This document shows, one piece after another, positions 45-58,298 of a stretch of 64,000 bases of DNA (within the stretch, counting starts at the first letter, position 1; every line of letters starts with the position of its first letter). Made by a program: the position numbers and the translations under genes. The notes below the pieces were generated by a model. That model was not told where the DNA came from, did not search any database, and worked only from the letters and a program-made list of their open reading frames with translations. The stretch covers positions 1-64,000 of the forward strand of contig MQRK01171103.1 of assembly GCA_001938485.1 (NCBI GenBank), given 5' to 3'. The DNA comes from Girardia tigrina. Taxonomy: Eukaryota.

Positions 45-2033
45 TTAAAAAAAAATTTAAGTAGAAGAAAGATAATGAATAAAGGAAAAGAGAATCAACA
101 GAGAAAATAATGCGATTTACATCAATTAAATTTTGACACGGGGATAATAATCCAAATTTGAACTGTATATAAAATCTTATTAGCAATGTTACTATTTTTT
201 TCGAGTGAATCATTTATTAGGAATTTTTAGATTTTTACACAAATTGTCCGAAAGCCGAGGCATGGGTAATTTAATTTATATTTGATACGAGATATAATTT
301 GACTATCGCTACTGCGATTTTGGGCAAAAATTTGGATCAAAATATTTGGTATTTAAATTTCAATTTTTATTCATGTCCAGACAAGGTCTAATTAAAATGA
401 ACAATTAATATTTTTTTAATTATCAAATAAATAAAATTGTAATGAAATACATAATTAGGAATTTATATAGATTTTTGAAACTAAAATCTTAATTTTGAAG
501 ATATTACAATTTTTGTTTAAGTGACCAAAAATAACATAATTATTCCATAAATATCTTCAATAATATATATATAATTATATGTATGTCAATAATAGTTAAG
601 TCTGATTAAGACTACATAAACTAAACAGTCTGAATTGTATTTTATTTGAATTTTATTTGAAAGTTATAATCTGGCAAAATATTCAAAGGAGACCTAAAAT
701 TTGCGTGGATGGATGACAAAATATCATATAAATACTCTTTTTATATAATGAATGAGTGACCAGTGGCCGGATCTAAAGGTAATCGGGAAATTGTAATATT
801 TTTTTCATTTTTCATCATTTGAGTGTTTTTTTTAAGGAAGCAGTTGAGAAACATTAAAATTAAGAAAGAGCATATGAAAACCAAAAAATCGCCATCTCTA
901 GTGTGAAATGTTTCATTTCAAACATGAAACATATGGTACAGGAAAATGTTTATATCACTTTTCTTCAAATATGTAAAAAGGAAATCATAATAAGAAATTA
1001 AGTTTTATTTTAAGATATATTGAATATTTTTTAGATTAGGACTTTGTTTATAGAATACTAAAAAATCCCTGAATTTTTAAGTGTTTGACCAATTTCGTAT
1101 AATTTTCACGAAGTAAAAAAACATGATAGCTGTTTAAAAGCCGGAAAAAGCTCAGAAGTCCGGTTTAATCCGAATTAGAAATTAGCACCAAACTATCAGG
1201 TCCGAAATTTCACTGTTGCATAACACAAAAACTAATATTAGATTGCCTTTCTTAACATGCTGGCTATTTTACCACTTTGAGAAGCTCGATCAGAAAACTA
1301 TACCTGAAATCATGACTGTAAATCTATCAAATTTTTGAAAATTTCCATAGATTCAAGGTCGAACACCAGAAATGGATACAGTTCAACCAATTTCGAAACA
1401 TCAAATCAAATAGGACTCTAATCTGTACAAATAAGCAGATTTCCATCCATGGAAAATTACTTTCGATCTTTGTAGTCTCCGGTGTTTTCTACCGCAGAAT
1501 CAATGTCAATTTAAGCTGGGTCTTCAAAAAATTTATTTTGAAACATTTCTGATTCCATTATATGTAGTCTCTTCATATACTTAAATTTCTTTTTAACAAA
1601 TTCAATGGGTCAATTAAATTTTGTCCACTATTGTGAAAGCCCGTAAAATAGAAAGTTCCTTAATTTTTAGTACGTGATATATTTATGTATGAAATAATAA
1701 TGATCCGGTCATTTTCAATATATAATTGTACATCAAGGTAAAGTTTTGAAATGATCTATACCTCGATATCTATTATTTCAATTTATTGTACTGAGAATGT
1801 CATATTTCATAAGATTCATTTTATGAGTGATTGTTAGGCAAATAAAAAAAACAATACATATCATAACAATGTGAAATCGGTGTTAGTTATCTAGAAAACA
1901 TGAAAACAAATGAGTAATAATTTATTCTGATTAACAATAACAATTTATATTTATCTAATTGGGGAACACTAATTATGTTATAAGATATATTTTAAAAGTC
2001 ATGTCACTGGTGTAAATAAGCATACATGTTCAT

Positions 2034-2429
2034 TGTGTCATCAGGGATCTCTGAGTGTAAGGATGTACCTCCGCGCGTTATCCCTGGGAAACTAGAGTTC
2101 TCTTCTCTAGGCTAAAGCGTCCTGCGTTGAGCCATTTGCTGTTTGAAAGGTCGGCAGCCGATGTATCGGTATTGGACTAGCAAACCAATACTTTGAAGGC
2201 CCAGCTTCATAAAACTGAATGACAGGCTTAGGAAGTAGTGACCCTGCAGTCGTGTGGTGGACTGCATTGCAATGATCCAAGATTTCTAATCTTGGTGAGG
2301 GGTGTTGTGAAGCCAGTTCGCCGGTGGAGCTTAGGCATGTAAATCCTTACTTAGTGCCTTTCGAAGCTGTAAACGTCTCAGACCTTCTAAAAAGCCTCAG
2401 ACTTAATATCTTTAAAGGATGAGAGGATC
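2034..2429 (+). mobile_element. Non-autonomous retroelement or RTE-type 5' UTR remnant, GC-rich and highly structured
   Basis: GC-rich island with an HDV-like ribozyme near its 5' end, followed by stems GTATTGG/CCAATAC (2169-2191), TGCAGTC/GACTGCA (2245-2266), CCAAGATT/AATCTTGG (2277-2295) and AGGCA/TGCCT (2333-2359). Flanked by a putative TSD, ACATGTTCAT (2024-2033) and ACATGCTCAT (2430-2439). The RTE assignment is inferred from known RTE 5' ribozymes. Confidence 0.55.
2043..2123 (+). ncRNA. HDV-like self-cleaving ribozyme (slightly degenerate)
   Basis: P1 AGGGAT (2043-48)/ATCCCT (2080-85); P2 AGGATGT (2060-66)/GCGTCCT (2117-23); P3 ACC/GTT with one mismatch; L3 TCCGCGC; P1.1 CC (2071-72)/GG (2086-87); P4 CTAGAG/CTCTAG; J4/2 CTAA with the catalytic-position C at 2112. 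Confidence 0.7.
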
Positions 2430-2530
2430 ACATGCTCATACATAACACATTTGCATCAACAAACGTAATATCATCAACCCTACATAATATCAATCTAATC
2501 ATTATATAATTATTCTTACTTACACTTGGT

Positions 2531-3302: not shown

Positions 3303-3536
3303 CTGTACATCGTCTAACAGGGCAAGTATTCCAATCACCGGAAGGACTAGTGAAACACCACGGACTGTTTGATTGAATCATATTTTGGATTTCAAATTTA
3401 GGGTTTCTGCAGTAGTTGCTGTCGGATGGGGGCATATTTTCATACGAAGGAAACAGTTTCCACGCCAAACATGGTGTTCCACTCACCGTTTGGGAAAGGG
3501 AGCCAACATAATCTGATCCGGTACCGTTAAAACAGT
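3303..3536 (-). CDS. ror: ROR-like receptor, exon I: kringle domain
   Basis: ttttaag|AC...ACAG|gtatga, 234 nt, phase 1-1. Encodes (D)CFNGTGSDYVGSLSQTVSGTPCLAWKLFPSYENMPPSDSNYCRNPKFEIQNMIQSNSPWCFTSPSGDWNTCPVRRCT, with 6 Cys and the NYCRNP and PWCF motifs. Confidence 0.92.
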
Positions 3537-3732
3537 CTTAAAAGTAAAGAAGAAAATAAAGAAATTATCTTTTTAAAATACTACTTAAAACTTAAAATAA
3601 ATTTTTAGTAATATTTACAAGGTATAAAGTAAAAGCCTCAAAATTAGTGCATTAGTAAAAAATTCTCAAGAGTAATAAGTCCCAAATTGAGAATAATCCT
3701 AATATTCATTAATTTAGAAGAATAATTCTTAC

Positions 3733-6813: not shown

Positions 6814-8079
6814 TCGGGTTAGCCAAAAAGTCATTGCGTTTTTGAGTACGTCCTAATAAAAAGCTTGAAAATATAAAACAATGTGATAAAATTTAAATTC
6901 AATTATATATTCTGAAATATCAATTTTCAGATTATGTTTATACAAAATATTAATTGATTTTGTTTTAATTTATTACTTTACCGTCAATTGGAAATGGAAA
7001 ATAAAAATGAGCATATTCGTCATGTTTTGTTGCATTATTTTCGCAAAGGAAAAACCGCTGTGCAAGCTCATAAGAAGATATGTTTTGTATATGGTAGTGA
7101 CTCCTTAACACTTCGACAGTGTCAATACTGGTTTTCTAAATTTCGTTCTGAAAAATTTCATCTGAAGATGCACCACGCTCCGGTCGACCAGTTGAAGTTG
7201 ATGGCGACAAAATAACAACACTGATCAAATTTAATCCACATATGACGACAAGAGAAGTTGCAGAGACTCTGGAAATATCAAAATCAAGTGTTGGAAGTCA
7301 TTTAAAGAAANNNNNNNNNNNNNNNNNNNNNNNNNNNNNNNNNNNNNNNNNNNNNNNNNNNNNNNNNNNNNNNNNNNNNNNNNTTTGAAGCGAGAATAAA
7401 GTGATCCATTTTTGAAGCGCTTGATTACGGGTGACGAAAAATGGATTGTTTACAACAATGTGGAACGCCGACGATCATGGACAAAACGTGGTGAGCCTGC
7501 CACAACGATCCCAAAAGCAGAAATTCACCAAAAGAAGGTTATGCTTTCCGTCTGGTGGGATTTTAAAGGAATTGTGTTTTTTGAACTCCTTTCGAGGAAT
7601 GAAACCATCAATTCAGACAGATATTGTGATCAGCTAGAGAAATTGGCTCATTCAATTCAACAGGAACATCCTGAATTCTCAAATCGAAAAGGAGTTGTAA
7701 TTCAGTATGATAACGCAAGACCGCATACACGTTTGATTACTCACCAGAAACTCTTATCACTGGGTTTGGAGGTTTTGCCGCACCCACCGTGTTATCCAGA
7801 CTTGGCCCCATCGGATTTTCACTTATTTAGATCATTGAAGAATTCCTTAAACAGAAAAACATTCGCCAGTGATGATGACATCAAATCGTTCCTAGACGGC
7901 TTTTTTGCTGACAAAGGTAAAGGTCTTTATGAATCAGGAATAATGAAGCTACCGGAAAGGTGGAAGAAAGTGATTGAAAATAATGGACAGTATATCGTGT
8001 AAAAATATTTGTGCATCCATGTTATTTTTTGATAATAAATATTTTAGTAAAAAACGCAATGACTATTTTGCCAACCCAA
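6814..8079 (+). mobile_element. Near full-length mariner (DD34D), probably mellifera-like, inactive
   Basis: TA-flanked TIRs TCGGGTTAGCCAAAAAGTCATTGCGTTTTT and AAAAACGCAATGACTATTTTGCCAACCCAA; about 1.27 kb. Transposase at about 6994-8002 with TGDEKW, DNARPH and PDLAPSDFHLF; frameshift near 7160 and N gap 7311-7383. Confidence 0.95.
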
Positions 8080-8519
8080 TATAATGTTATAGTATTTTTA
8101 TTCTATAGTATTTGAAATTATTGCCTTGTAAATTCTTAATTCCTTAGTCCAAAATAAACAATAGTTGCCAAAATCTGAAACATCCACTATTAATATGAAT
8201 CTGAAAAATGAAATATCCTTTTATATTAGATTAACTCTTTTGCTTTTTGTCAGTATTAATTAATTATAATGTGATTAAAAGCAAAATCTGTTTGATTTTT
8301 TTCATTTAAAAAGAAAAAAAAATCTTTCAATAGAATTAGAAGCTGGAGAGAAAAAAACAAAATCTTCTGTAATATAAGAATATATATATATATTATTTTA
8401 TGCATTCTATTTTTTTTTAATTTTGCATAATCATATACATCTTCAAAAATAATTACAAAGAAAAATTTTATGCATAAATTTTGTAGGATAATTTTTTAAG
8501 TTTTAAACTAATTTTCGAC

Positions 8520-9950
8520 AAACTAATTCGGGTTTTGAGATGAGAATTTGTCTTTTTAATGTGGGCCTCCCATCTCTTTCGAATGGTATTGAGCCTCTAG
8601 GCTCTTTAGAGGGTCCACCACAACTAAAGAATCACTAGCAGCCCCTCGATAGGCTTCCTACGGGGTCGGATAGTTTCGGTCTCCGAGATCTTTTCGGCTT
8701 CCCTGTGAGAAACGACCACCCATGGGTTGTATAGCCATGGTTCTGGATACCTTTGGCTGTATTCGTGGACTTCGTACAGCCGCGAAAGTAATATCTGAAC
8801 TCCCCCTTGCAGTTAGATCTGCAATCCTAAAAGTCAGATGTGTTTCTTCAGTACCTATCGCTTCTTCTACCGCCGTCGAGATAGTCGGGGGGTCCGTCAC
8901 GGATTGAATCTGGTTGCCAGGAATGTTGAGGTTTTCTACGACTCTTTCTTCTGTGGTATTTGTTGTACTGATTTGTGCTTGTGTCATTGTCGGTTCTCCA
9001 ATTTCTTCTGTCTCCTCCAATTTATGATCCCAGTAGAGGTGCCTTGTCAGCCACCCCTTCGTTTTGAAAGACTTTTTATATAGTGTACATGGGTTTTTTA
9101 ATGTACGAGTTTTTACACCCGTGACAATTAAATTTATGAACCAGATTAGGTTGCAATCAACAATTCATTTTTGATTTATTCGAGGAAGCTTTGAACTTTT
9201 GATGTAATTGGAGTTACTTTGAAACTACCTATATTCTTTCAAATAATTTTCTTAAATAGTTTAAATCCTTCAGAATATAATAATTCGATTATTTGTTAGT
9301 GCTATTCAACGTTTTCTTTCTTTAATCATTTTATCCCTTGTTTGTGTACATAATTAGTTCAATGTAACCTTAATGTTGGGATCTATCTTTTTGTTTGAGT
9401 ACATTTGTTCCCTCGTTCGTCCTTTAAGAATATTTAAACCATGCTCTATTATTTTCAAATTGGAAGACAAATTCCGAACTCTGTCATTTAAGCCCTCTAT
9501 CATACCATCCATCTATTTTCCTCATAAAAGTTTGGTGGTTATTTGTAGAGACCTGTATCTGTTGTCTTTCTGAATAATTCACTTCGATATTTTCCATCTA
9601 TCCTATTGAGATGAATGCCAAGAAATGAATATTCGTTATTTACTTCCGATTCATTATTGATAAGTCGCTAAAACCCATTAATAAACATTCATAATGGACA
9701 AAGTAAAGCCGTTTCATATCTTAAAGTCTTTAAATCAATTTTTTAAAAATTTTGCAATATTTTTCTAATAATATCTGAAATAATTAAATTATATTAAAAA
9801 GTGATTCCTTTAAAACTAACTTTTATAAAACTAATATTAAAAATAACAAATACTACATTAAAAATGTTGATGATGGAATAAGAAATTCCAAAACATGTTT
9901 AATAATCCATTTCTTAAAAATGTTTAAATAAAGTTATTTTTCACAAATAA
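8520..9950 (-). mobile_element. Degenerate Penelope-like element (RT thumb to GIY-YIG) with an inverted pLTR at its 5' end, interrupted by an insertion
   Basis: 9095-9645 on the minus strand is homologous to 30650-31190. The GIY-YIG segment SYIKK continues as TNSHLKTRIS at 8523-8562. 9645-9950 on the plus strand is the endonuclease C-terminus (NGQSKAV) plus a pLTR with a degenerate hammerhead, TTGATGA-TGGAAT..ATTCC-AAAACATGT (about 9867-9898). Confidence 0.8.
8563..9094 (-). mobile_element. 532-bp inserted coding fragment: C2H2 zinc finger plus T/E/P-rich linker, possibly from a zinc-finger non-LTR retrotransposon
   Basis: Flanked by the 10-bp direct repeat TTTTTAATGT (8553-62 and 9095-9104). 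One frame is open across the insert apart from a single TAG: PCTLYKKSFKTKGWLTRHLYWDHKLEETEE... Confidence 0.65.
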
Positions 9951-11104: not shown

Positions 11105-11300
11105 ATGGTATAATCGTCATCGTCAGGTACTCAAAATATTTTTGATTGTGCTCCCCAGGATTTTCTTTCTTTAATTATTTTATCCATTATTTTTGTAGAT
11201 AATTTGTTCAATGCCACATTAATGTTGTGATCTATTTACCTGACGATGATAGTTATACCATCGAAATTAATTGTCTTAAAAAATAAAATTTTGTTTTACA
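11105..11300. mobile_element. Small Penelope-like remnant with inverted hammerhead-like pLTR pieces
   Basis: 11160-11236 is homologous to the PLE segment at 9311-9388. CTGACGATGATAGTTATACCATCGAAATTAAT lies on the plus strand at about 11240-11271, with an inverted partial copy at about 11105-11128. Confidence 0.65.
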
Positions 11301-15524: not shown

Positions 15525-16470
15525 CTAAGAAATATTATTTAATTTTTTTCCAGAATGCCTGCCATTAAACTTTCAATTGTAGTTTCTGTCACGTTTTTGG
15601 CTGCATTATTCCACTTGTTCCTGAAATTTACAATTGTCTATGCACTCCTGTTTGTCTTCTTTAATTGCATTTTTACCAGAGCACAATAATTTTCGATTGG
15701 GCGAAGCTTTGGACAATTTGGTGGGTTTACCTCTCTTTGCACCAAATCGACGTTATTGTCTTCGTACCACTTCTTGGCTGCCTTACCATAGTGGCACGAT
15801 GGCAAATCCGGCCAAAAGAGAATAAGACCTCCGTGTTGACTTATGAATGGTAATAAACGCGTTTGCAAGCACTCCTTCACATAGACTTCTGTGTTTATTG
15901 TGCCAGATGTGACAAAGCATTTACTCCTTTTCCTGCATCCACATATAGCCTGCCAAACAAGAAATTTTATGGGAAACTTAGATTTTTTCTTGCTTTTAAA
16001 TATTTGTTTAACTCTTCCTCTCTTAGTTGCAGAGTAAAATTCTTGTCCAGGTATCTGGAAAAACTCGCAGAGCACATAAGTCTCATCATCCATAATGCAA
16101 AATTTTTTCTTCGCAAGTAAACCAGATTTCAACTTTTTGGCTCGCTGCTGCGCCTTAACGTTCTTGTTAGTACTTTTTAACCCATAGACTGTTTAATTTT
16201 CCGAACTGTTTTCTCGCTACAATTTGATTTTTCCGCCAGTTTTCAATTTGATAGACGAGGATTTCTCTCCAACTTTCTTCACATTATATGTATACGAAAT
16301 ACCCTTTCTTCTTCCCGAACCAATTTTTCTGAAAACGTTCAAGTTCTCATTGAAGTTTTGAATAACGTTAGAAACTGTTTTCTGACAAATTGTTGCTTTT
16401 CTGGTAATTGTTTTCTAACTTGATTGTGGACTTTCTTGAGATAAACGAATAATTAATTCGCTACTTCATG
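15525..16470 (-). mobile_element. DD37E (ITmD37E-type) Tc1/mariner transposase pseudogene; ends approximate
   Basis: ORF 15638-16132 contains MDDETY...FWPDLPSCHY...NPPNCPKLRPIE, with exactly 37 residues between the second D and the E. The upstream part is degenerate. Confidence 0.85.
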
Positions 16471-20310: not shown

Positions 20311-20741
20311 CTGGACGTTGTAAGTTGGTATGCTGCTCAGATTTGTGACTCTCGTCAGATGGGATTGATATGTTATTAATTAATTATTTAAATCTAATGA
20401 GATTAATTTAAGAAGATGAATGTTTAAATACTAATTAATTAAAAAGTTTTGTAATTATAAATTTTAATAATATATTTAGTAAAACGATTTTAACTTATTA
20501 AATTTAATATATTTTAAAAACTAATATTTATTTTAAAATTTACTTAATGCATTTTTTAGCAATACTATTTTGAGAAATTAAAAGTTAATATTATTTTTAA
20601 CTCATTAATTAAATCAAAGATTTGAATATAAAAACAAAAAACATATTAATCAAGAACGATGCTTCGCGCAAAAATTGCTACTGAGAATGATTTTGTTTGT
20701 GTTGTAAATAAATATTTTCACGGAAATTGTGATGTTGCTGA
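20311..20741 (+). repeat. Copy of the TGTGAGG solo-LTR-like repeat (5' truncated)
   Basis: Colinear with 25925-26345, sharing CAGATGGGATTGATATGTT, TTTTAACTTATTAAATTTAATATATTT and AAATTGTGATGTTG. Confidence 0.75.
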
Positions 20742-22128
20742 TAGATATAAAGCATGCAAAAATGTTTAATTATGTAGCTGTTAGTCGAAAAACAAATACA
20801 TTAATAAGATTGAGTAAATTATACTATAATATTAAAATAATTTAAACAATACTTGCTCAAGTAATAGTAAAACATTAAAACATTAATATCCTTTTAGATT
20901 TAAAATGTTATTTTCAGTTGCATAATGTTTTGATAAAATTAATTTTTATTTTTTTAAAAATATATATAAAGTGTAGTAAAATTTGATTGTAAAATGAAAT
21001 AGCATTGAGGACAATATTGTAGAATTAAAAATCAATTAAACTAATTCAAGCTGCTTGGAAATTAATTAAAACAAATGTGATTGGTTATATTCAAACAAAA
21101 AATAGATTTCGATGAATAAAAAAGGATTGAAATAGGAAAAATTTGAAGAGAGAAATTTAAAAAGATATATTTTTACAAAAAATATAATTTTCTTTATTTT
21201 CTTTCAACTTGTAGAGTCTTTCTTTGAAAAATAGAACCATAAAGATTTATTTTAATTAAATTTCTTTACTACAAAAATCGATTCTTCCATAATTAGAAAT
21301 TGTATACTTTTATCTTCTTGCAGAATTAGAATATTTTAACAATTAAAAATTAAAATTAAAATCTGCAAAATTGTGGTTGGAAAATCTGTAATAAAAAATA
21401 GATAATTTTCATAACACTAAAATAAATGACTAAATCATTAAAATGCACAATACAAAAGTACATACAAAAGATACATTACAATGACATTTCCAAAGCAAAG
21501 TTGCATTCTAATTTTATATCTAAAACATTATTTAAAGTATATATATAGCTCATAAAAATATTATTAAAAAATAAAAAATCAAATATAAATATTCTAATAA
21601 AAATATAAATAATATAGTAAAAAATATTATTTCTAGATTGACCTAATTTTAAAGAATTTTACAAAGAAACATATTTATATTATCCTCCAATATTTAAATT
21701 TAATATTTTTTTTCAAAAAACTGTACATTATAGTTACATTGACCTAAAAAGTTCATATATTGTTTATAGTGAAGATTTAATAATAATCTTTCATCCTTTG
21801 AAATAAACAATATTTTACAGAAGATAATTTTTTTTAAAAATTCAAGAACAACAACAAAAATAAAATAAATCAGTTCAATTATCAAATATAATTATTTTAA
21901 TAAAAAGAAAAATAATAAGAAATTATTTCTAAGCTAATTATCAAATTCTATATTATTTCCCAATTGTCAAAATAGTTAATTAATTATAAAACGCAAATAA
22001 TATTAATTAAAATAATAACATGTTCATAAATAGTGATTTTTCCCAAAATAAACTAAAAATATCAATTTCAATTAAACGTGAGACATAAAATCCATATATT
22101 CTGTCAATGATGATGCCAAAGAACTTAC

Positions 22129-22335
22129 ATTTTTTCTGAAGCTTCTGAAGCATGAGTTTGTAGGTATAATTGCATCGCTTCTTTGTCACATCCTCGCAGT
22201 CCTCATGACACAAGCGCCTCGGTCTGTTGTCTTCTGAGCACATCAAGAAATTGTCATGGCACGTCAAACGCATAATGTGCTTTAGACACTCTTGATCTGC
22301 CTGTTCTGACAGCACCGACGATATTTCCGCAACCA
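22129..22335 (-). CDS. ror: ROR-like receptor, exon G: Frizzled-type CRD core
   Basis: atgttcag|TG...AAAT|gtaagt, 207 nt, phase 1-1. Encodes (L)VAEISSVLSEQADQECLKHIMRLTCHDNFLMCSEDNRPRRLCHEDCEDVTKKRCNYTYKLMLQKLQKK (PRxLCxxxC motif). Confidence 0.92.
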
Positions 22336-22639
22336 CTGAACATTCAATTGAAACATTACTCATCATTTATTATGCGTGAAAAAATTTAATTATCATGCAT
22401 ATTATGATTTAATTTTTATGATAGACTCTTCCATTCTATCATTTCTTTTCAATCAATAATATGGAATTATTAAATTTAATTACAAAATAAATTTTAGATT
22501 ATTTATCAACAAACTTCTCATTCAAAAAATTGTTTACAGTTTTTATTTTTGGTGGTTTTTCATGTTTTAGAATCGTTAAAATATATAAGCGCTTTGTAAA
22601 TTTTTCAAGCATATTAATTTTGCATTTTCATCAAGATAT

Positions 22640-23860
22640 TAATCTCGGCACTTTCATGATCTCGGGATCCTGTAATCGATTATTTTTTAATATAATTAAT
22701 TAAAAATTTTTTAAGTTAATTAAATTAATTTTTGGTTTTAGTTAAATTTTTAATAATTTTAATATAAATTTTATTTTTTAAATTAAAATTTTAATATTTT
22801 ATTTTAAATTTTAAACACCACACATTAATACTACTAAAGTCATAAAATGTTTCTTTATTTGAGATGTTCTATACTGGAATCACTGACAATGTTGGAAATA
22901 ATGTCGTAAAGGTCAACTAATATAGCGCTTTATCTTAGTTCTGTCAAAAACAGTTCACTAGCAGAAAATGCTCAAAAAGACTTTGTATAGAATTTCTGGA
23001 AGCCTCCCTGTATGACCGACGACGAGAAGAAAATCGAGCACTCTTCTAATTTGACATTCTATCGCCGCTCTCTTTTCTCTTCCTTCCTTTTAATTTGACC
23101 CAATGTCATATTTCTGCTAGGCTTCCTTCAAACGTTGGTTCATGTCGCTTAACTTCTTTTCTTCAGTTAAGACTTCATTTCCATTTTCACAATCCCTGAC
23201 GACATCCAATTTGTTAGCGAGGTGATGAGTAAATACTTCGCGGCATTCATTTCTTTAGCTATATCTACATTTCCATCCCAACTAAGATATTTATTGCTAA
23301 AGATATCGATGTTAACCTTTCTATCATGTGATTCTGATTTAATTTGATGTGGTAATTTATTTAAAGTGAATCTAACAGCCCCGTTTGCCATCACCAAAGT
23401 ACATTTTCTCTTTGACATCGTTTTTAATAGCAATTTAACTGGCTTCAAAGCTCTATAAATGATTTCAAGTGTGTGCTTTTGTGATTCACTAAATAAGAAT
23501 TCTGAATTAAAACAAATTAAAGCTTTTTTTAAGGACTCCTTCACGAGAATCAATCATTCAAGTTTAGGGATCAAGGAGTTCCATATGGTTTTAATATCCA
23601 ATAAAAGAGATAGCTCCTTTCCATGTTCCTCCTTGATAAATTGCTGAAGCTTCTCATTTTTAACAGGACTTCTTGGAAATATTTTCAAAATATTGCGAAC
23701 TTTTTTTATGAGTTTCGAAAAGTGAGAATTTACTTTACGTTTCTCCGACTTGTGAATGTTACACCCATCGTAACTCATTCTTCATATAAACATTGTTAAG
23801 ATCGTAGTTGTTTTCGGACGAAACCTCGGATGAAGACATTTTTAAAATTTTTATTCAATA
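22640..23860 (-). mobile_element. Degenerate hAT transposon; ends approximate
   Basis: KKVRNILKIFPRSPVKNEKLQ...LLLDIKTIWNS (DxxTRWNS-like motif) and ALKPVKLLLKTMS. C-terminal AFSAS remnant near 22960. Confidence 0.75.
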
Positions 23861-24244
23861 ATAAAAATATTACATAATATTTAATTAAGTTAATTTCTGA
23901 GGAGCACTTTTTTCTTGCACAAACCAATAATATCTGTGAGGAATATTTGGTATGTTGATGTTTTTGTGTAGTGTTTGCATGTTTATATGTTGTGTGTTGA
24001 TATTGGATTGTGTCTAGTGAATCCAAATACTCGACTTTTCAGCTACCCGGGAAATCGAATATTTATTTTTTGAACTACCTGGGTACCCAGGTATTTCGAG
24101 ATGAAAAAAATTCAAGTTCAAGTACACTATGTTTTGTCAATTTATTTTTTAACATAAGAATAATTAGAACATATAAGTATAAAATATATATATTTAATAT
24201 AGAAACATATACGTTTTCATTTATAATTTATTTTTTATTCAAAA

Positions 24245-24700
24245 AATAATATTTGAGGAATACAAGCCCGTCTAAAGTATCCATCTTCAACTGGTTTCGA
24301 ATTTTTGTAACAAATGTTGAATCTACCGAAAATACTCTTTCGCTTACTGACGAAGTAGGTTGAATAGTCATCAATGCGTTGTACAGATTTTAAACTGAGT
24401 CACCTCTTTTGGCATTATTTCCCTCCCAAAGTTTTAGTTCTTTCTCTAATGTGGATTTTCCTCCACTATCTTTCGGAATAGCCATAATATGTTCAATTTT
24501 TTTTGGAGTTAATCATAATTTGAATTAAAAATAACATCCTCATTTCAGAAGCTGGCTCTGGATATGTGTTGATTATAAATTCTAATTTAAACATTCTAAT
24601 TTAAAAATTCTAATATTTCCCTTCTTCTGAAAAACTAAAGTTGTGTCCTTCCTTCCATCAAAGAAGATGTCAAAGAAAGCCGGTTTTTTCTATAGAAATT
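24245..24700 (-). mobile_element. hAT C-terminal dimerisation-domain fragment
   Basis: The minus strand reads YNALMTIQPTSSVSERVFSVDSTFVTKIRNQLKMDTLDGLVFLKYYF (SERxFS motif). Confidence 0.8.
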
Positions 24701-25910: not shown

Positions 25911-26357
25911 TGTGAGGGCTAATTTGGAATGTTGTAAGTTTGTTGTTTGTATGCTGTTTAGATTTGTGACTCACCTACTCAGATGGGATTGATATGTTTA
26001 TTTATTGATTATTTGAATCTAATGATATTAATTTTAAGTACTAATTAATTTAAGTTTTATAATTATGAATTTTAATAATATTTTTAGTAAAAAATTTTAA
26101 CTTATTAAATTTAATATATTTCAAAAATTAATGTTCACTTAAAAAAATTACGTTATGTCTTTTTATCCAATAAAATTTAAGAAATTAAAAATTAATATTA
26201 AAATCTTTCCCATTCATTGTTTTTTTTTAGATTTGAATACAGTAACAAAAACTATATCAATCAAAGAAAGATGCTCTCTGAAAATTGTTGTGAAGAATCT
26301 GTTTGTGTTGTCAATAAATGTTTACATTCAAATTGTGATGTTGTTAATACCTACACA
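25911..26357 (+). mobile_element. Putative solo LTR (about 447 bp)
   Basis: Begins TGTGAGG, ends CCTACACA (TG..CA, near-inverted termini) and contains AATAAA. Related 5' heads at 11327, 23935, 25218 and 50371. No clean TSD seen. Confidence 0.5.
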
Positions 26358-28619: not shown

Positions 28620-30105
28620 AGCGATTAAAGCTTGCCCATAAGTCCACATCCTTTTTTATACACCAAAGTCAAGCGCAAACTACATACGTATTTAAGATTC
28701 TATGTACTACAAATGAAAGAATAATTGTTCATAAATTGTATTGTATATTCTACTAAATTCTGTAAAAATATAAGCAGTGTCAAAGTGGTTTCAATGAATT
28801 CTATAGTTCAAAGCTTCCTCTAAAATGAATAAAAACCGATTTGTGGATTTTAAGCTAATATGGTTTATAAATTTAATTGTCTCGGGTATTAAATCTCGTA
28901 CATTGGAGAGATAAATCGTCATCTCTAAACCCGGATTAGTGAGCATTCAAAATCAAGTCGATTGAGTAAGGTTCTTCATCATTGGTACATTGTAAAAATA
29001 AAATTTCGTCCGTTTCAAAGGATGAGTTTTCTGTTTAAAAACGGGCATTGATTTACACTATATATGAATCATTATTGATAAGACACTACAACCGGTTAAA
29101 GAAACTTTCTAAATGGACAAAGTAAAGCCGTTTGAATTCTTAAAATCGTTAATTAAAATAAATGAAAAAAATGTCATTAGACGGATACCGTGCCTCCACA
29201 TTAAATTAAAACTCTGAGAAAATCGAAATTTTCTTTGTTAGGAGTCGTTTGTGATAATGTGGGTTACCGAAAATTATAAAACTTTTAACTTCGAAAATAT
29301 TTTCCGTTTTATTGAGTAATTCGAGTTCATTAACGAAAGCTTGACAATCTTCTTCCCTGATAACCGGATCGATTTTCTGTCGTTTGGTCGAGGTCATTTT
29401 GTCAATGATAAAGTCAAATAATTGGAGATCGATTGAGCAGTGTTCTGGTTTTTTAAATACGAAGAGATAAGAAAGCGAAAGTCATGAAAGTTTAAGAGAA
29501 TTCAAATTTTTATTATTAATTTTTATTGGAAATGAAAATAAACCCACTGTAAATGAAAAGCAACCCGTAAACTTTTATTTTTCATTGTCATTACATTGTT
29601 TTTGAAGACTGCACAATCACGCAAACAAATTTGATTAAATTACTTTATTTAAACAAACACAATTTGAATTTTCGATAGTTAACAATTCAATGTCTTTAAA
29701 AATATTCCATAATTTTCATACATATTCGCGTGTTATATTTGAAAATGTTTGATAATTATCTTTAATTTGCTTTATTTAATTATTTTTTATTTAATTATTT
29801 TTATTAAATTACTTTTTTTAATTTAATTATTTTAATTAGTTATTTTATTAATTATATAATTTATTTATATACAATCCTTAAATTTTGGCAAAATGTTCGG
29901 TCAATGAACAATTTACTGCTCCAGTCATTATTATCCAAAAAAATCATAAAAAAATTTATATTAACTGATGAAATCTCGCATTGGTTAACATTTTATTATC
30001 TTACAAATTACATTTTAATTGATAAAAATGGAAAATGAAGTTTCGAAACATGTACAAAAATTAATTTCTTTAAAAAGCTTTAACATAACATTTCAAATAA
30101 ATAAA
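28620..30105 (+). mobile_element. Degenerate Penelope-like element (plus strand), interrupted
   Basis: VYKFNCLGY*ISYIGEINRHL*TRISEH (GIY-YIG) at about 28863-28946 and the IRHYN...NGQSKAV C-terminus at about 29078-29135. A pLTR tail with a decayed hammerhead (GAAACATGT at 30045) resembles 9860-9950. Confidence 0.75.
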
Positions 30106-30152: not shown

Positions 30153-31303
30153 AATCTTGTGAACGCAAGTTTGGTATTTCGAAAATATAATTTGATTAAA
30201 GCTTTTTTATATAATTATTGGACATGTTTCGATGTTTACATACATCATCATCAGCAATTTTCGGATGTTTAGTAAATGAATATTGAATTGCTTGAATAAT
30301 ACAATTTTAATAAATATAATTTAAATTAAAAGGTGACGAAGAAATTAAACATTTTTATTTATGAAAATATTATTGGGTAATAATGGCAAAAATATTTTAA
30401 AAATTTTAAGTATTGAAATAATCTTACTTTGTCCATTCTGAATGTTAATTGATGGGTTGTAGTGTCTTATTAGTATAGATTCACAAAACTGTCGTTCGTA
30501 ATGTGAATCAAAACCCTTTTGTAAAACAGAAAACTCATCTTTTGAAATGGANNNNNNNNNNNNNNNNNNNNNNNNNNNNNNNNNNNNNNNNNNNNNNNNN
30601 NNNNNNNNNNNNNNNNNNNNNNNNNNNNNNNNNNNNNNNTTTGTCTCTCCGATGTACGAGTTTTGACACCCATGACAATTAAATTTATATACCAGATTAG
30701 CTTGCAAATCACAAACTGTTTTCGATTTGTTTGAGAGGAAACTTTGAACTTTGGATGTAACAGAGAGTACGTATTGTTCTACAAATACTCTTCTTAAATG
30801 CTCTAAATTCTTCAGAATATGGAATTTTAATGATTTGTTTGTATTCTTCAGTATTTTCTTGTTTTAATTATTTTTTAACTCGTGCATCTATACATAATTT
30901 GTCTAATGTTATCTTAATGTTGTGTTTTATTTGCTTGTTTGTATACATATTGTCCCTCAAGCGCCTTCTAAGAATATTTAAACCGTGATTTGCAATTTCA
31001 AAACTGGACGACAAATTCCAAACTCTGTGAACAAGCCCTTTGATCATACCCTCTCTGTATTTTTCCTCACAAAAACTCTGTGGTGTTGTGTAAAGACCTG
31101 TATCTGNNNCCTTTCTGAATAATTCAGTTTTATAGCCTCCATTCATCCTAGTGACAAGAATGTCCAGAAAGGGAAGTTTATTATCTACTTCCAATTCTGT
31201 GGTAAATTTAATATTCGGATGTAGACCATTCATGAATTTTAGGAATGGTTCTATGAGTGGTCCAATAATTATATAAAAAAGCTTTAATCAAATTATATTT
31301 TCG

Positions 31304-33951: not shown

Positions 33952-34491
33952 AACATGACCCAACATATTTTCAACTCCTTTGCCAAATATTTGACTTAAA
34001 TTTGAACCACTGATACATGGATCTGGATTTTGTCTCTTGAGACTGGGCTTATTGAGAATTAAAACTAATGAATTCTTTTTACCAATGATACTTTTTATAT
34101 AATAATTATTTTAATTTTGATAAGACATTGTTAACAAATTAATTTAACTGTTATGCTTTCGTGAAGAATATTTTCATTAGTTTTACACAAACTTTAAAAA
34201 TACATGTATTATTTTAAATTACTTTTACTATTATTTATAAATCAATACTATAGTAAAATATTTGAAATTCCAAAATTTATATACTTTTCAAACTCTTGGT
34301 AAAAAGAATTCATTAGTTTTAATTCTCAATAAGCCCAGTCTCAAGAGACAAAATCCAGATCCATGTATCAGTGGTTCAAATTTAAGTCAAATATTTGGCA
34401 AAGGAGTTGAAAATATGTTGGGTCATGTTTTATAAATAATAGTAAAAGTAGTTTTAAAAAATACATGTTTTTAAAGTTTGTAAATAACTAA
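33952..34491. repeat. Interlocked inverted repeats A-B-A'-B'
   Basis: A (33952-34085) is the exact reverse complement of A' (34296-34429), 134 bp. B (about 34177-34241) is an imperfect reverse complement of B' (about 34429-34491). Confidence 0.9.
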
Positions 34492-38985: not shown

Positions 38986-40921
38986 ATTTAATACCCAACA
39001 TTTATACAAAAGGATAACAGAAAAATAACCTAAATAAATTTTATTATAGATGCTTTTTTAATTTTAAAATAAGATTTACAGGTTTTTTACTTTAATTTGA
39101 TAAAATAATACAAATCAGAGGAAGGAAGAATTGTAAAAAGGTTAAAATGGAAAAATACCGAAAAATAATGTCATAACGGATTTTAAATTCTGGTTAATAA
39201 AATATATTTTTCACATTGGAATACTGTCAACATTTATTGCAACAATGACGTGCAAATCTACTGTCTTATTCAAGATGCAAGATTTAATTTACATTTTTTA
39301 GAAGAAAGAAAACGATCCACTGCCTACAGCTTTAAGGAGTCCAAAATATCTGAGAAAAGAAATTCAAAAAGTAACATACAATCTCAAAGTCAATCTTTTG
39401 TAAAAATATTTTTTCAACCGTATGTAGTATCATTTATGTACTTAAATGTTTAAAGAACGCGTCAAATAAGGTTAATACAAACTCAAATTATATTTCACAG
39501 AAATTACTTTCTTTTAAAAAACAAATATTTTTTTCTGAATATCGTTTTTGACTTTTTATTTTTGTAAACAATAAAAGATATTAAAATTCGTTTTCTGTGT
39601 CCTATGTATAATTTAAAAAAAATCTAGTTCTCTAAAATTTCGAGCAAATAAAATATATTATAATAATAAAAATCTGAAAATAATCACTGCGTCTCATACG
39701 ACGGATTCAAAAGCATATAGTAGTGTGAATGTGTCGCCAGAGTTCCATTCAACACCGTTGACTAATGTGTTTTGCACTTATATGAAACATAATAAATATG
39801 TTTCATTTGACATTCACCAACTTTTATCATCTATTAATAGCACTTTGTGTGCGATCAAATCAAATCAAACAGATTAGATTGTTTTACTGTTGATTAATCA
39901 ACAACTCTAAGCTTATTAAGGGTCGTCATCCTTTGCCACAGTACGTATGACTTATCGGTTAGACCTGAGTAAAAGTCAGATGAAATAAATTAACTTTGAT
40001 TGCATTGTGAAGTTTTTGTAAATAAATTGTGTATGTTGACTTCCTCAATCTTCTGTGTTGTGAATTTGTTTTAAATTACATGACTCTCAAGTCCTTATTA
40101 CTTGAAAGAACTTGATACATATTGAATTTATCTTTGGCCATTTTCAATCTATTGTTTGGAGCAATGAATACAAATAAAAATGAATAGTTATGATATAGAT
40201 AATTTAAAATTTAGTTCAATTATATAATAAGTTGAAATTTAAGATGAACAAATTACATTACAATTTATTTTAAATAATAAATTAAAAGTTAAGATATTCT
40301 ATTATTATTAAGATAAATTCAAATTAAGATATTATGTATATTTTTTAAAAGATGCTCTAAATACAAAATGATACACGATATGAAGAAGACTTAAATGCGA
40401 ATCAATATGGGAAAATTAAACAAGACCCCTCTACGATGGTTTAAATAATACATTACATAATATATATTTAATAGATATTTCCGCATTAAAAGCTAGTTAC
40501 AAACCAGTGAAAGGAAGTAGATGAATTCTCATGAAAATGATTAAAAATGGTGTGTTAGGTCTTTATGAATAAAATTAATCAACACTGATGTATTAGTGAA
40601 ACACTCTAGCAAATATAAATGTTAGCTCTGGCACTAATGTAAACTATTCGGAATTTTACCAACGGCTGGGATTACTCACAAAATCAACAGTCAATATACA
40701 CGATTTACCAATCTTAAACACAAAGAAAAAAAGTTTAATAACATTTTATTGTATTTACAAATGAACCTAAAACGTGACTGTCTTCATACGAGGGATTGGA
40801 TTTCGTGTATTGAGAAGAATAAATATAGCAATGAGGATTATGACTAAGATTAGGAACACTGTGTGTATAATTTAATTAATAATTTTGTTTTGCAATGACT
40901 GAATATTCGAAATTATCTTAC

Positions 40922-41031
40922 TTGGTCTGGTAACTTTCAGATACGAACTGGTGTTGATAGAACCATAATCATTCTCAGCAGTGCAAATGTACGTACCTTC
41001 ATCGCTGAAGTCAACATCTTCAAGCTTTAAT
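40922..41031 (-). CDS. ror: ROR-like receptor, exon D: Ig domain C-terminal half
   Basis: aattcag|A...CCAA|gtaaga, 110 nt, phase 2-1. Encodes LKLEDVDFSDEGTYICTAENDYGSINTSSYLKVTRP (DxGxYxC I-set motif). Confidence 0.93.
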
Positions 41032-41084
41032 CTGAATTGCGCTTATTATATTCTCTTTCTTGATTAAAATAATTATAAACATAC

Positions 41085-42032: not shown

Positions 42033-44557
42033 CAGTTGTTCCTAACCTGCGGGTAATTACCCACAGGGGGGTAAAAAGGCATCCACTAAATTTTAGTGAT
42101 GCCTTCTTTGTTAATAAAAAAAACAGTACAGTAACGCATTTGGTTCATGTAACATATACTCTATTGATATCGAAACTGCGTGTATAAACAAATTTGAACT
42201 GATAGTGGTTGAGCATGTATTCCGACGCATTATGGCGTTTGAGCTCCACAATGCGCACACGCGATGCGCCGTGACTCAGTACCCAGTCTATCGGGCCGTA
42301 TTCGTAGTTTGAGATTTAAACAAGTCATATTTAAACAAGTCAAGTTCAATTGTCTCTCATTGCATATAACTACCAGTTTTGAAATAATTACAATATTATT
42401 TACTTTTTTGACTGTAAGTAGTAACAAACAGTGATAATTAATTATAATTAGTTTTTTCTCAATATTCATAAAAGTAAAAGTTAACATTTTTATTTTTTCC
42501 TTAGATAACTTTTTTATGAATATTTTAGGGGTCATGAGTTCTAATACCTCAAAAAAGCGCTCATATAAAGAAGCATTTTACAATGGGGATTCACGAATAT
42601 TCTAGATAGGAATGTGGAAAAGCCTCAGTGTGTTCTATGTAATAAAGTGCTTAATACAGAGAGCATGAAGCCGAGTAAATTAAAAGAACATTTCAAGAGA
42701 GTTCACAAAGAGTTTGCAGATAAAGATATAGATTTTTTAAGAGAAAAGAGAGTTTTCTGAAGTCTGTGCGATTTGATTCAACAGGAAATATGCAAAAGGC
42801 AAATGAATCATATCTTCAAGCTTCATATCAAATTTCTTATCGTATTGCTATGAATAAAAAACCGCACACTATAGGAGAGGATCTCATCAAACCTTGTTTG
42901 TATGATGCAGTATCACTCGTCATTGGCAAGAAACATGTGGCTAAGATCAAACAAATATCACTTTCAAATACTACAGTTCAAAGCCACATTTCAGACTTGA
43001 GTAACGATATTATGGCAACCATTATTGATGAAATGAAAGGAAGTTCTATGTTTGCACTGCAATTAGATGAGTCTACAGATGTAGCTTTGTGTTCACAGCT
43101 ACTGGCATATTAAAGATGACTGTGTAAAAGAGAAATACCTGTTCTGTAAGTCCTTATCAACCACTACACGTGGAGAAGATATTTTTGAAACGCTGAAACA
43201 GGTTATTGAGGAAAACGATCTGGAGTGGTCAAAGCTGATCGGTATTTGTACAGACGGCCTTCCATGATGGGTGTCCGCTCTGGATTTCAAGCACTCGTGA
43301 AACAAGTTGCTCCTCAAGTTTTATCCTATCATTGTCTCATTCATCGCTACGCTTTGGCTGTTAAGACGCTTCCATCAGAATTACTAAGCACGTTGAATGA
43401 CATAGGGAAAATTTTGAACCATGTTCGTGGCAATGCAACAAACACCAGATTACTTAAAGTTTTATGTTGGTGCCAAATTTAACTCTCTTTTGTACCACAC
43501 AGAGGTACGTTGGTTATCACGAGGCAGGGTTTTGAACAGGGTTTACGAGCTCCGTGAAGAAATAGGATTATTTTTTGAAAAACAGAAAACACAAAAAGAA
43601 AAAGAGTACCTGTCAAAAATAAAAGACAAAACATTTGTTGAAAAGCTAGCGTATCTTGCTGATTTCTTCAGTGAAATCAACAATCTTAATATTTCTTGGC
43701 AAGGAAATATGACGAATATTTTGACAGCACAGGATAAAGTTTCCGGTTTTGTACGTAAATTAGAACTTTACCAAGGCAGAGTGCAAACTGGCGATGTGTC
43801 GATGTTTACACAACTCTGTTAGCAATTGTTAAATACCGAAGCCAGCAAAATCACATTTAGAAATGCCGTGGCTCAACATTTATCTACAATAATAGAGTCA
43901 CTGAAGCAATATTTTCCGGATTTGGATAATCGTCAGTCCAATTCTTGGATATTATGACCCTTTTCTACTGTTGATGACATTTTTAAAGACGAGGATGTAG
44001 CGGCAAAAGTAGAATTTCTTGGACTCCGCGAGAATAATACTTTTAAAGTAGAATTTCAAAATTATGATCTCTGCAAATTTTTGGTTAAAGCAGGTACCGA
44101 ATATTCTGTTATAGCCATCAGAGCTTTAAAATGGTAATAGCCTTCGCCACCACTTATAGATGCGATAGTAGTTTTTCGACTTTAGTTTCATTGAAAACAA
44201 AGCTCAGAAACCGTCTCAATGTGGAATATGACTTGAAATGCGCTTTAAGTGACACTAAACCTAATATAAAAAACGTGTAAATTCAAAACAATTCCAAACT
44301 TCACACTGAATATTTTTAATTCATAGTTAAAATATAAAACAAAGTAATATTGTAATACTGTTTTGCAATTTGTGTTTTTCTATTTACTCACAATGTATCC
44401 AGTTTTCTGACGAACTGCTAGTCAATGACAAATTTGTAATTAATAAACATTAAAATTCGCTTGCATAGTGTGTTTTTATAGCATTTTTAAGTTGGGGTAA
44501 AATCCGTTTTCCTAACAGGTTACAGGGGTAGCAACATAAAAAGGTTAGGAACCACTG
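42033..44557 (+). mobile_element. Full-length hAT transposon, Buster/Charlie (ZBED5/SCAND3-like) type, transposase inactivated
   Basis: TIRs CAGTTGTTCCTAACCT and AGGTTAGGAACCACTG (15/16). 8-bp TSD ATCTAGTA (42025-32, 44558-65) with central TA. Frameshifted ORF at about 42535-44309 with a BED finger (PQCVLC...MKPSKLKEH), KPHTIGE, LDESTD, HCLIHR and HTEVRWLSRG. Confidence 0.96.
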
Positions 44558-46287
44558 ATCTAGTAGATTTAACTCTTAAACGAAACCATGGATGAAATTT
44601 CACCCCATGACATTATTTTCTATATTAATACGTTAATTGTCGCGGCGGTCAACGGTAACTGACATTTTCATAGCATAAAAATCCACGACAGTTAACTCGT
44701 CGAACAAACTTTAGTTCTTGTTATTCCTAGTTCTTTTGTATTTATTTGTGTATAGACAGTCCAATTAGTGAATTCACGAAAATATATACATGAGATGCAA
44801 TTTCATTATACGATTGATGTTATTTATTGGAATGATAGCTTTTATGGGTCAATATTTGACTATTTGCAGTTAATACTTGATTGTTTAGAAGTAATTCAGA
44901 ATTTATTTGGAAATTCTTTTGACACTGCTAAATTCCTAGCTTTAGAATTCAATAAATATTCAGTATAATATTCAAAATTTATGTACTCAATTAATGATTA
45001 CTTTGATTACGTGGTTTCTTGGTAATCTATTTGTCTAATTTTTTATCTGGTTTTGCAGTATCTTATCTTATGCTTTTAATTTACTTTTTCTTAAGTTATT
45101 CTAAACAAAATTTTTAAAAATTTTATTATTTGATTTTAATATTAATAAGAAATATTAGATCACTTCAAAATATATTTTAAAGCGATTAATAATGTTTAAT
45201 TATTAAAACAAAATATTTAATGCGATAATATTTAACGACAAATAACGCGTATTCCCAGATTCACGTAAACGCATTGTGAATCGTGGATAACGCCTCCAGG
45301 ACAAACAGAAAATATTTTAACATTTATATCGCATGTTAATTGTAACAAGTTTCTTGTTTCGTATGTTTCATTTATATTAACTAATATAATTTTATATTCC
45401 AATTAAAATTTTAAATGCCAAATAATTTCTGGAAACTATTGCAAAATATCCAATGGATATTCTCTATTAACTGTCAACTAGAACTTATTTTATAAAATTA
45501 TTATTTATAATTTATTTATTTTAATAATAATAATAATAACAATCATGAGTTGATAATTCAAAAATAAATTAATAGTTCATAAACCCAGTGCCAGTAGACA
45601 TGATAGAAATTATATATTTTTTATGAATGGCTCCATAATATCACGAGTTGTCAAGTGGATAATAATTTATAATAATAATTTAATAATAATGAACGAGGCC
45701 GATAATGAGAGACACTCGTCCCCGTCCTCCTGCGACTGCTCTCTGCCTGGTGAGTCACGGCCTGTTAATTATCACCCTTCAACTTGCACTGGGTTCCACG
45801 ACAATGTAGGATTATCCACTGGACAGCACCACCGCTGCTCGTTGGACTAATTAACATTGACATGAATAGTTGTGTTGCATTTCGGTTGTAATTAACCGCC
45901 TTAATCATGGTCAGTAACTGAACACGTACGACTAACTGCATGGATGTTGCTGGGGGCGATGGTCAGGTCTTAGAATTCTCCATGATAAATTGTACCAAAT
46001 ATTAAGGAATTGCTCACCTTAACAAGGACCAATCAATTTATTGACAGTTCTATCTGTTTACGTTATTAAAGTCCCCCCTATTACTAATAGATCTAAAAAT
46101 TTTCCCAAATTAGTGTTAACAAAACTGATAAGTTACAAATTAATTTTTTCTTATTTTTTTCCAAAAAAAATAATTGCTTTTTTTACGATTTTTTGTTATT
46201 TCGAAACATAAAATTTGATTTTTCAATTAAAAAATTTCATTAAATATTAATTCATCTCAGTGTTTTGTTTCTCAACATAAAAATTAC

Positions 46288-51266: not shown

Positions 51267-52389
51267 TATCATATTTTATTTTTTATTGCATTTCTTTCGA
51301 CTTTTTTGATGGTAAGAAGGATAAATAAATAATTATAAATTTTATTAAAAAAATTACAACAAATCCTCAAACTGGAAATTTCAGTTCTAGAATTTGTCAA
51401 ACCTAATCAATCATAAGTGCATTATTACAAATCTACAATTCCACCCCGACTCGGTAGAGGGCCATCCCTTCTCCGCGCTCTTCTCGAGGATACTTATCCT
51501 AACTCTCTTAAGAATAAATTATCTGATTCATCAATTTTTAGAGTCAGTGTTAATTTTTCTCTAAGATACAATCAAGATTTTTTTGCTTATTTAGAAATCA
51601 AGTTAAAAGAATCTATGAATAACTCTACGATTTAAGTGGGGGTAATAATACTTTTTGATACTATAATTATGATCAAATTAAATTTATTGATTAATTTAAA
51701 AAACAAAGATATTTTATTTTTAAGGAATGAAGCAATTTACTTTGAAATAAAAATCAGGAAGTAAATTTCGTTATTGAAATAATTTTTTGTTTAGATAAAA
51801 TCAAATTTTCATTAAATAGAAAATTAGAGGGTAAATTAAAATAAATTTATGAAAAATCGAAGTTTAATAATAAATATATTAAAACCACGATTGGAATTTC
51901 ATTAAAAAAGATAAAATTTTTCTGTCATCCACTTGACCTTAGTTGCTAGGGATTATATGAATAGACCTCTGTCAAAATATTTAAATAATATTTATATTAT
52001 TATCTTCTCGTATACATTTTGCCAAACAAATATGCTATTTCCAAACCCATTCACTGAAACACAGTAATTAACATATTTTCCTCAGTGTAAATAGGTTCAT
52101 ATAAAATAAAAGACTTCTTTATTAGAAGGAAATCCTTCTAGACATAGTAGATAATTTTTATTAAGTTGTACCTTTAAATCTAATATTCCGTCTTTAAATG
52201 AAAATATAGTTTAAAATTAAAATTATGATGAAAATTATCGTTAAGAAATTTTACCTTTGAAATATTTATGTGAAAAAATAAAATATAATTATGAAAACTA
52301 TCACAAGTGAAATGGAGATACTTATTACTTTATATAAAACTTTACATAAGTAAGTCTTTTTCTATGCTTATGCTTTATATATATAAATA

Positions 52390-58019: not shown

Positions 58020-58086
58020 ACAATTTGTAATTTTTTGTAAATATTAAATGTAGTTCAAAGTATGATGTGCCCCTTATATGTATATA

Positions 58087-58138
<52 letters not shown>

Positions 58139-58229
58139 AAAAATACTTATTTTTACTCTATNACAATTTGTAATTTTTTGTAAATATTAAATGTAGTTCA
58201 AAGTATGATGTGCCCCTTATATGTATATA

Positions 58230-58275
<46 letters not shown>

Positions 58276-58298
58276 AAAAATACTTATTTTTACTCTAT
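58020..58298. other. Tandem duplication of about 140 bp around a single N; probable assembly overlap artefact
   Basis: 58020-58161 is repeated at 58163-58298, differing only in (TA)n length and separated by the N at 58162. Confidence 0.85.

Follow-up and report, generated by a model that had tools for sequence, protein, structure and literature searches.

A short ORF-less unit headed by an HDV-like ribozyme motif, a candidate non-autonomous non-LTR retroelement beside a ROR-type gene

The DNA analysed here (the window, that is the whole stretch of 64 kb) is AT-rich, animal-type DNA with a GC content of 18-35% per 2 kb. At 2034-2429 it contains a unit of 396 bp headed by an HDV-like double-pseudoknot ribozyme motif, which very probably descends from a real HDV-like ribozyme. 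With moderate confidence the unit is read as a single insertion of a short retroelement of the non-autonomous non-LTR kind, namely an internally deleted ribozyme-bearing LINE, most likely of RTE type. The observations that support this reading are the motif itself, the missing coding capacity, the repeat in the flanks and an end that resembles a tail. The RTE clade is named as probable by analogy, from the style of the tail and of the target-site duplication (TSD) only. A non-autonomous ribozyme-headed element had been put forward in the original prediction and this is still the best reading, but the novelty that it implied was too high, as the RTE, Ingi, Vingi and R2 clades are all known in the literature to include ORF-less LINE derivatives that retain the 5' end (PMC5786205). 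The concept of a ribozyme-headed ORF-less LINE derivative is already in print, and the element is probably a further example of it.

The ribozyme motif and its expected activity

The five helices of the nested double pseudoknot (P1, P1.1, P2, P3 and P4) could all be placed in order within the motif (Table 1), which confirms helix by helix the fold that had been proposed for this site. The U...CG of L3, the C-G pairs of P1.1 and, in J4/2, the C followed by N-R-A are all present in this copy. U2113 departs from the C-R-R-A that the descriptor of PMC6326823 gives for J4/2. Cleavage is predicted between 2042 and 2043.

Table 1. Features of the unit at 2034-2429, its boundaries and the neighbouring gene
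Feature	Position	Strand	Remarks
HDV-like double-pseudoknot ribozyme motif	2043..2123	+	descriptor match, shuffles, pair list
P1	2043-2048/2080-2085	+	6 Watson-Crick pairs; first is A-U
P2	2060-2066/2117-2123	+	5 Watson-Crick and 2 G-U pairs
P3	2067-2069/2077-2079	+	2 of 3 pairs; central C-U mismatch
L3	2070-2076	+	U2070, C2074-G2075
P1.1	C2071,C2072 with G2087,G2086	+	CC/GG
P4	2092-2097/2105-2110	+	6 Watson-Crick pairs
J4/2	C2112-U-A-A	+	predicted catalytic C2112; G directly before C
Perfect 7-bp stem, 9-nt loop	2169..2191	+	
Perfect 7-bp stem, 8-nt loop	2245..2266	+	
Perfect 8-bp stem, 3-nt loop	2277..2295	+	
Longer imperfect hairpin, predicted only	2325..2371	+	MFE and centroid of 2290-2375, z -1.14, not significant
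Left copy of 10-bp direct repeat, candidate TSD	2024..2033	+	9/10 match to 2430-2439
Right copy of 10-bp direct repeat	2430..2439	+	
9-nt leader between repeat and ribozyme +1	2034..2042	+	by eye like end of flanking repeat
Purine-rich end, candidate worn microsatellite tail	2418..2428	+	two edits from (GAT)4
Alternative boundary, TG...CA unit of 412 bp	2027..2438	.	exact 4-bp duplication 2023-2026 / 2439-2442
Kringle exon, neighbouring ROR-type gene	about 3303..3537	-	Pfam Kringle E 7.9e-12; splice donor 3302
Fz/CRD exon, ROR-type gene	22010-22366	-	Pfam
Ig exon, ROR-type gene	40878-41042	-	Pfam

A strict descriptor of the fold matched this site and no other on either strand of the window. 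Dinucleotide shuffles of the element, 20,000 in all, gave it no match, nor did 830 block-shuffled windows, figures which have to be read knowing that this descriptor was composed after the copy was known. A loose descriptor had a considerable background, with matches in 162 of 20,000 shuffles of the element and 845 matches in 993 shuffled windows (about 0.85 per window). In the real window it gave two extra matches, both AT-rich and chance-like in appearance. With such a background the significance of the motif depends on its canonical core and on its perfect stems.

The motif was not recognized by Rfam. The whole window had no match at gathering score and no HDV-type family was returned at E<=10 over 1900-2600 and 2030-2140, so that the covariance-model search proposed in the original prediction gave a negative answer. 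Curated HDV-type covariance models are lineage-specific and leave the pseudoknots unscored.

Judging by folding models and by the published consensus, this copy of the ribozyme is probably slow or dead. This had been suspected from the mismatch in P3 and from the 6-bp length of P1. The mismatch stands and folding adds two further defects, but P1 is no defect, as in R2 ribozymes it is typically 6 or 7 bp long (PMC3774820) and as the six Watson-Crick pairs seen here equal the 6 bp given as the minimum in HDV-like ribozymes (PMC8495972). Four defects can thus be listed, namely an A1-U pair in place of G1, the P3 mismatch, the pairing of the leader with the Gs of P1.1 and a rival hairpin.

Position +1 is expected to be a G paired with a pyrimidine, and G1 is given as invariant in HDV-like ribozymes (PMC8495972, PMC6326823); here the pair is A2043-U2085. 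The A at +1 weakens the status of this copy as an active member of the class, not its descent from an HDV-like ribozyme. A P3 mismatch of such a kind has been described in one R2 ribozyme (PMC3774820). The last two leader bases before 2043 pair with G2086 and G2087 and so extend P1, with a mean probability of 0.5-0.9 in nested ensembles, and leader pairing with this junction has been reported to block P1.1 and to reduce cleavage (PMC8495972). The rival hairpin is formed by the 5' side of P2 and J1/2 with L3, its probabilities being 0.41 and 0.65 at 37 C. Both results indicate competition and not its outcome, as nested-ensemble folding cannot score pseudoknots. An alternative P1 of 7 bp starting from C2042 would place a pyrimidine at +1 and consume a G of P1.1, and is regarded as an inhibitory misfold. 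A hammerhead on the minus strand was also considered and discarded, its core word being found at 2044-2038 with no partner GAAA downstream and no stems.

The body and the ends of the unit

The unit is an island of 47% GC in surroundings of about 25%, and the edges of the island coincide with the repeat-bounded ends. Its description as ORF-less was borne out: the longest ATG-started frame on the plus strand has 18 codons and five stop-free frames inside the element had no match in Pfam. In two weak tests, the longest sense frame (48 aa) had no match in the protein atlas and a 79-aa antisense frame used as a probe for other copies returned no candidate. No tRNA gene, Pol III A or B box or Rfam 5S or 7SL match was found in the element. 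The missing Pol III-type head and A/B boxes speak against a classical SINE with a tRNA, 5S or 7SL head. An ordinary 5'-truncated LINE is excluded, in agreement with the original prediction, by the ribozyme at the start, the GAT-like end and the lack of an ORF and of a tRNA head.

The same source had described the unit as hairpin-dense, with four more stems following the ribozyme. Three of these are indeed perfect stems, but the fourth is imperfect and not significant, and the plus strand of the whole element folds no better than its shuffles (z -0.66, 27 of 100 as good). Three perfect stems of at least 7 bp in 2124-2429 were equalled by only one of 2000 shuffles. This excess weakens to 50 of 2000 if stems of at least 6 bp are counted, and to 63 of 2000 for a single stem of at least 8 bp. 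None of nine sub-regions folded had a z below -1.2, and a 3' stem-loop at 2360-2432 was not significant (z +0.71). For the minus strand of the element the fold had a z of -2.45, with 1 of 100 shuffles as good. A rod-like or tandem circular RNA was rejected, given that the plus strand has no rod fold and that no tandem copy is present in the window.

No direct repeat between the flanks is better than the 10-bp one on both sides of the unit. Matches of 9/10 were obtained at random window positions in 70, 255 and 478 of 4000 trials for spans of 20, 30 and 40 nt, respectively, and in shuffles of the real flanks in 5, 56 and 91 of 4000. The chance of such a repeat is therefore 2-6% at spans of 20-30 nt. 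Moreover the insertion site is of low complexity and in the modelled empty site a 7-base run shows 10-nt periodicity, which makes this chance higher still. What had been called an apparent TSD is thus a real repeat, but it carries a mismatch, it lies in a low-complexity site, and a boundary model with a 4-bp duplication fits about as well.

That other model, a TG...CA unit, is the sole such solution in the flanks and was met at 621 of 19153 random positions (3%), so that by chance either model would be about as rare as the other. The 10-bp model is preferred for the position of the ribozyme, which starts 9 nt away from one repeat, for the tail-like end, which adjoins the other, and for the lack of a TATA or poly(A) word in the unit. 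A DNA transposon or MITE was rejected, the longest inverted match between the ends being only 5 bp.

From their sequence the nine leader bases are probably either junction bases, non-templated or due to slippage, or an uncleaved 5' leader. Non-templated extra bases are described at the 5' junctions of R2 and R2 SIDE elements, and such extra bases are common when the ribozyme cleaves at the end of the element (PMC3774820, PMC3414825). A ribozyme +1 only 9 nt from the left repeat is what would be expected if the ribozyme sets the 5' end.

The 3' end of the element has no poly(A). A fit to a trinucleotide repeated four times as good as that of its last bases was found in 3 of 147 internal 13-mers, the candidate tail being short and fitted post hoc. 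RTE elements finish with a short microsatellite, for which TGA repeats accompanied by a 10-bp TSD are one example (PMC2887409), the TSDs of plant RTE elements are 8-20 bp long (PMC5850137), and the supplement of PMC5786205 shows RTE-derived SINEs that end in GAT repeats.

Relation to known elements and competing explanations

An origin by internal deletion would imply the following course. The source copy would have been transcribed by Pol II, through read-through or from an internal promoter, and its HDV-like ribozyme would have folded co-transcriptionally, the equivalent of C2112 cutting just 5' of P1 and in this way defining the RNA's 5' end. The stems of the UTR and the microsatellite-like 3' end could then have been bound in trans by the endonuclease/reverse transcriptase of the parent LINE. 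Integration through target-primed reverse transcription may have produced the 10-bp duplication and the few 5'-junction bases that are seen in the sequence, and the copy would have decayed since. The size of the unit falls in the range of published ORF-less LINE derivatives, such as R2Dwi_SIDE with 529 bp (PMC3414825) and RTE-N1_Lch, RTE-N2_Lch and RTE1-N1b_LA with 262, 286 and 470 bp, respectively (PMC5786205).

The bipartite derivatives of RTE elements described in PMC5786205 (RTE-N, RTESINE1/2, WALLSI3, Bov-A) are likewise short and ORF-less and keep the LINE 5' end, together with a short 3' end with a microsatellite. According to the same source, RTE, Ingi and R2 carry 5' ribozymes and also spawn ORF-less derivatives. 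By eye, no convincing likeness to the element was found among the RTE-derived SINEs in parts 1-3 of the 15 parts of its supplement. The likeness noted is one of architecture, and there is no parent LINE in the window, where none of the 13 frames of at least 100 codons is a LINE-type ORF. Ruminski et al. in 2011 are said to be the source for ribozymes in RTE elements.

The R2 SIDE and R2/R1 hybrid SIDE of Drosophila also share with the element an HDV-like head, the lack of an ORF and a size of about 0.5 kb (PMC3414825). The R2 SIDEs of 529 bp and the R2/R1 hybrids self-cleave in vitro; the 5' junction of the R2 SIDE is variable with extra bases, and the R2/R1 hybrid has 14-bp TSDs (PMC3414825). 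However, as described there, these SIDEs insert site-specifically in 28S rDNA and the tail of the R2 SIDE is poly(A), whereas the element has a protein-coding neighbour, no rDNA and no poly(A).

Further likeness exists to NARTc, RIME and SIDER2, which are dispersed ORF-less retroposons with an HDV-like head of ~80 nt (PMC4035085). Of the ribozymes of NARTc, RIME and SIDER some are active and many are weak or dead, and the upstream sequence alters their activity (PMC4035085). NARTc, RIME and SIDER2 belong to the trypanosomatid Ingi/L1Tc clade with its Pr77 signature, whereas the host of the element is an AT-rich animal. For Vingi, non-autonomous internal-deletion derivatives have been reported (PMC5786205). 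By eye, the 5' end of Vingi-2_Gav as printed in the supplement of that paper reads ribozyme-like and has the same J4/2 word as the element, but its L3, P1 and P2 sequences differ. Retrozymes, of the plant LTR type and of the animal non-LTR type, are small non-coding ribozyme-bearing retroelements like the element; nevertheless they carry hammerheads and occur as paired LTRs or tandem units, whereas the element consists of one unit only, has an HDV-like fold and lacks a hammerhead. The element was not filed in any of the named families because its membership in them is at most putative and the +1 G is absent from this copy.

Searches for relatives covered several kinds of sequence. No second copy was found in the 64-kb window, either by BLASTN with word size 7 or with the core motif allowing 3 mismatches. 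As expected, the core pattern in one exact form had no match in bacterial and archaeal genomes, and the element had none at E<=1 in phage and plasmid records. An 8-mer in common with the lepidopteran HaSE1/HaSE3, with a 7/8 match close to it, was dismissed as a likeness, as dozens of 8-mer matches are expected by chance over the several kb compared.

The strongest alternative is a one-off event, in which the unit would be what remains of an autonomous ribozyme-bearing LINE after damage, either through an internal deletion during or after insertion or as a 5' UTR left behind, and would never have formed a mobile family. The element is single in the 64 kb while the mariner and Penelope-like repeats recur, its tail is weak and its ribozyme decayed, all of which would suit this explanation. 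On the other hand, repeats on both sides with no ORF remnant between them demand a clean loss of the whole ORF, and such structures are known to amplify as families (PMC5786205, PMC3414825). We consider it unlikely.

Another explanation, which appears more doubtful still, is a hybrid SINE-like element, dispersed in the genome, that took its ribozyme head from one LINE while some other element or an unknown RNA supplied the body and tail. Hybrid R2/R1 SIDEs whose ribozyme is active have been described (PMC3414825), and the body has no match in Rfam, in phage and plasmid records or among the RTE-SINE sequences compared. These absent matches, however, reflect a comparison set without a eukaryotic repeat library, and simple internal deletion is the commoner route in the published cases (PMC5786205).

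The TG...CA boundaries could also mark a solo LTR of an animal element resembling the LTR retrozymes, with an HDV-like ribozyme in place of the hammerhead; cleavage in both LTRs would then free a unit-length and possibly circular RNA. This is very improbable, despite the exact TG...CA ends and 4-bp duplication, rare by chance as these are, and despite the plant LTR retrozymes, which have ribozyme-bearing LTRs of ~350 bp and 4-bp TSDs (PMC7761336, 10.64898/2026.07.22.740005). Imperfect inverted ends (5/7, by eye) would in addition account in part for the 9/10 direct repeat. However, the ribozyme begins only 16 nt into such an LTR, which leaves no space for a promoter ahead of it, and TATA and poly(A) signals are absent on either strand. 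The GAT-like end and the position of the ribozyme suit a non-LTR element, and there is neither a hammerhead in the unit nor a second copy in the window. A literature search, which was not a full survey, found no report of an HDV-like ribozyme within an LTR.

Equally little credence is given to a ribozyme likeness that arose by chance within some other GC-rich repeat fragment. The blank Rfam result, the background of the loose descriptor, the late composition of the strict one and the deviation of A1 and of the P3 mismatch from the consensus (PMC6326823, PMC8495972) would speak for it. Nevertheless the strict descriptor met nothing in any of the shuffled sequences, the copy has a canonical L3, the CC/GG of P1.1, a G in front of the catalytic C and three complete stems, and it is placed at the very start of a repeat-bounded island. 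Finally, a ribozyme retained by the host to process a non-coding transcript, antisense or neighbouring, at the ROR-type locus is scarcely credible, because although it lies ~0.9 kb downstream of the kringle exon and intronic ribozymes with proposed host roles are known (PMC6765202), it has four predicted defects, insertion-type flanking repeats and the wrong strand for the pre-mRNA.

If the internal-deletion reading is true, the element adds one more animal example to a known class, and it offers a handle on a question raised in PMC5786205, namely whether it is through a 5' self-cleaving ribozyme that RTE, Ingi and R2 elements can give rise to ORF-less derivatives. Should it prove to be a multicopy family, natural variants of the HDV fold, with A1-U and a P3 mismatch, would become available for activity tests. 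Among all the readings only the solo LTR would surprise specialists; if true, the HDV fold would be combined with LTR-type mobility and with RNA circles encoded in an animal genome.

The neighbouring receptor gene and other features of the window

The order of the Ig, Fz and kringle exons on the minus strand fits ROR, judging from the domains encoded, and the gene is here termed ROR-type. The same order also fits receptors of the MuSK/Nrk type. A search with the kringle exon returned two close relatives (61% and 55%) and no named orthologue. The ribozyme is on the plus strand, and the position of the element antisense to ROR given in the original prediction was correct. In the orientation of the gene the element follows the kringle exon at a distance of ~0.9 kb. 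As no kinase exon is evident in 1-2766, it may lie in an intron, or in the 3' UTR or downstream of the gene. Being antisense, the ribozyme cannot cut the pre-mRNA of the ROR-type gene, and an effect of the element on this gene is unlikely because it lies on the opposite strand and is probably weak.

Past the kringle exon the best acceptor, at 2766 on the minus strand, opens a frame of about 30 codons which stops at 2676-2674. A hydrophobic stretch is found at 2678-2580 on the same strand, in a different frame. The frame at 2766-2674 could belong to a short kinase-less isoform, to a frameshifted transmembrane exon or to an intron. The Fz exon is flanked by a 420-bp AT-rich direct repeat pair (20324-20743 and 25945-26349) with 76% identity.

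Several other repeats were seen in the window. Two mariner copies, at 6958-8082 (plus strand) and 52387-53207 (minus strand), are 93.6% identical over 702 nt and have a Mos1-type HTH and matches to Transposase_1/DDE_3. A Tc1-like transposase remnant lies at 15638-16414 on the minus strand, its DDE_3 match (E 3.4e-05) being below the cut-off. Decayed hAT-type transposases with zf-BED and hAT dimerisation matches are located at 42569-44277 (plus strand) and about 22960-24512 (minus strand). A family of minus-strand fragments at 8422-9771, 11141-11237, 28800-29168 and 30345-31287 is 70-87% identical; their frames resemble the end of the RT and the GIY-YIG domain of Penelope-like elements. Three frames of these Penelope-like fragments had no match in Pfam, and no hammerhead was found nearby.

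A GC-rich island (up to 48%) at 45536-46119, without a long ORF, a repeat partner or an Rfam match, is possibly conserved non-coding sequence or a repeat fragment. At 57989-58298 there is a 143-bp tandem duplication interrupted by a single N at 58162, which is probably an assembly artefact. The 478-bp unit at 33952-34429 has perfect 134-bp terminal inverted repeats and no obvious TSD in its 16-bp flanks, and is either a young MITE, a foldback element or an assembly artefact.
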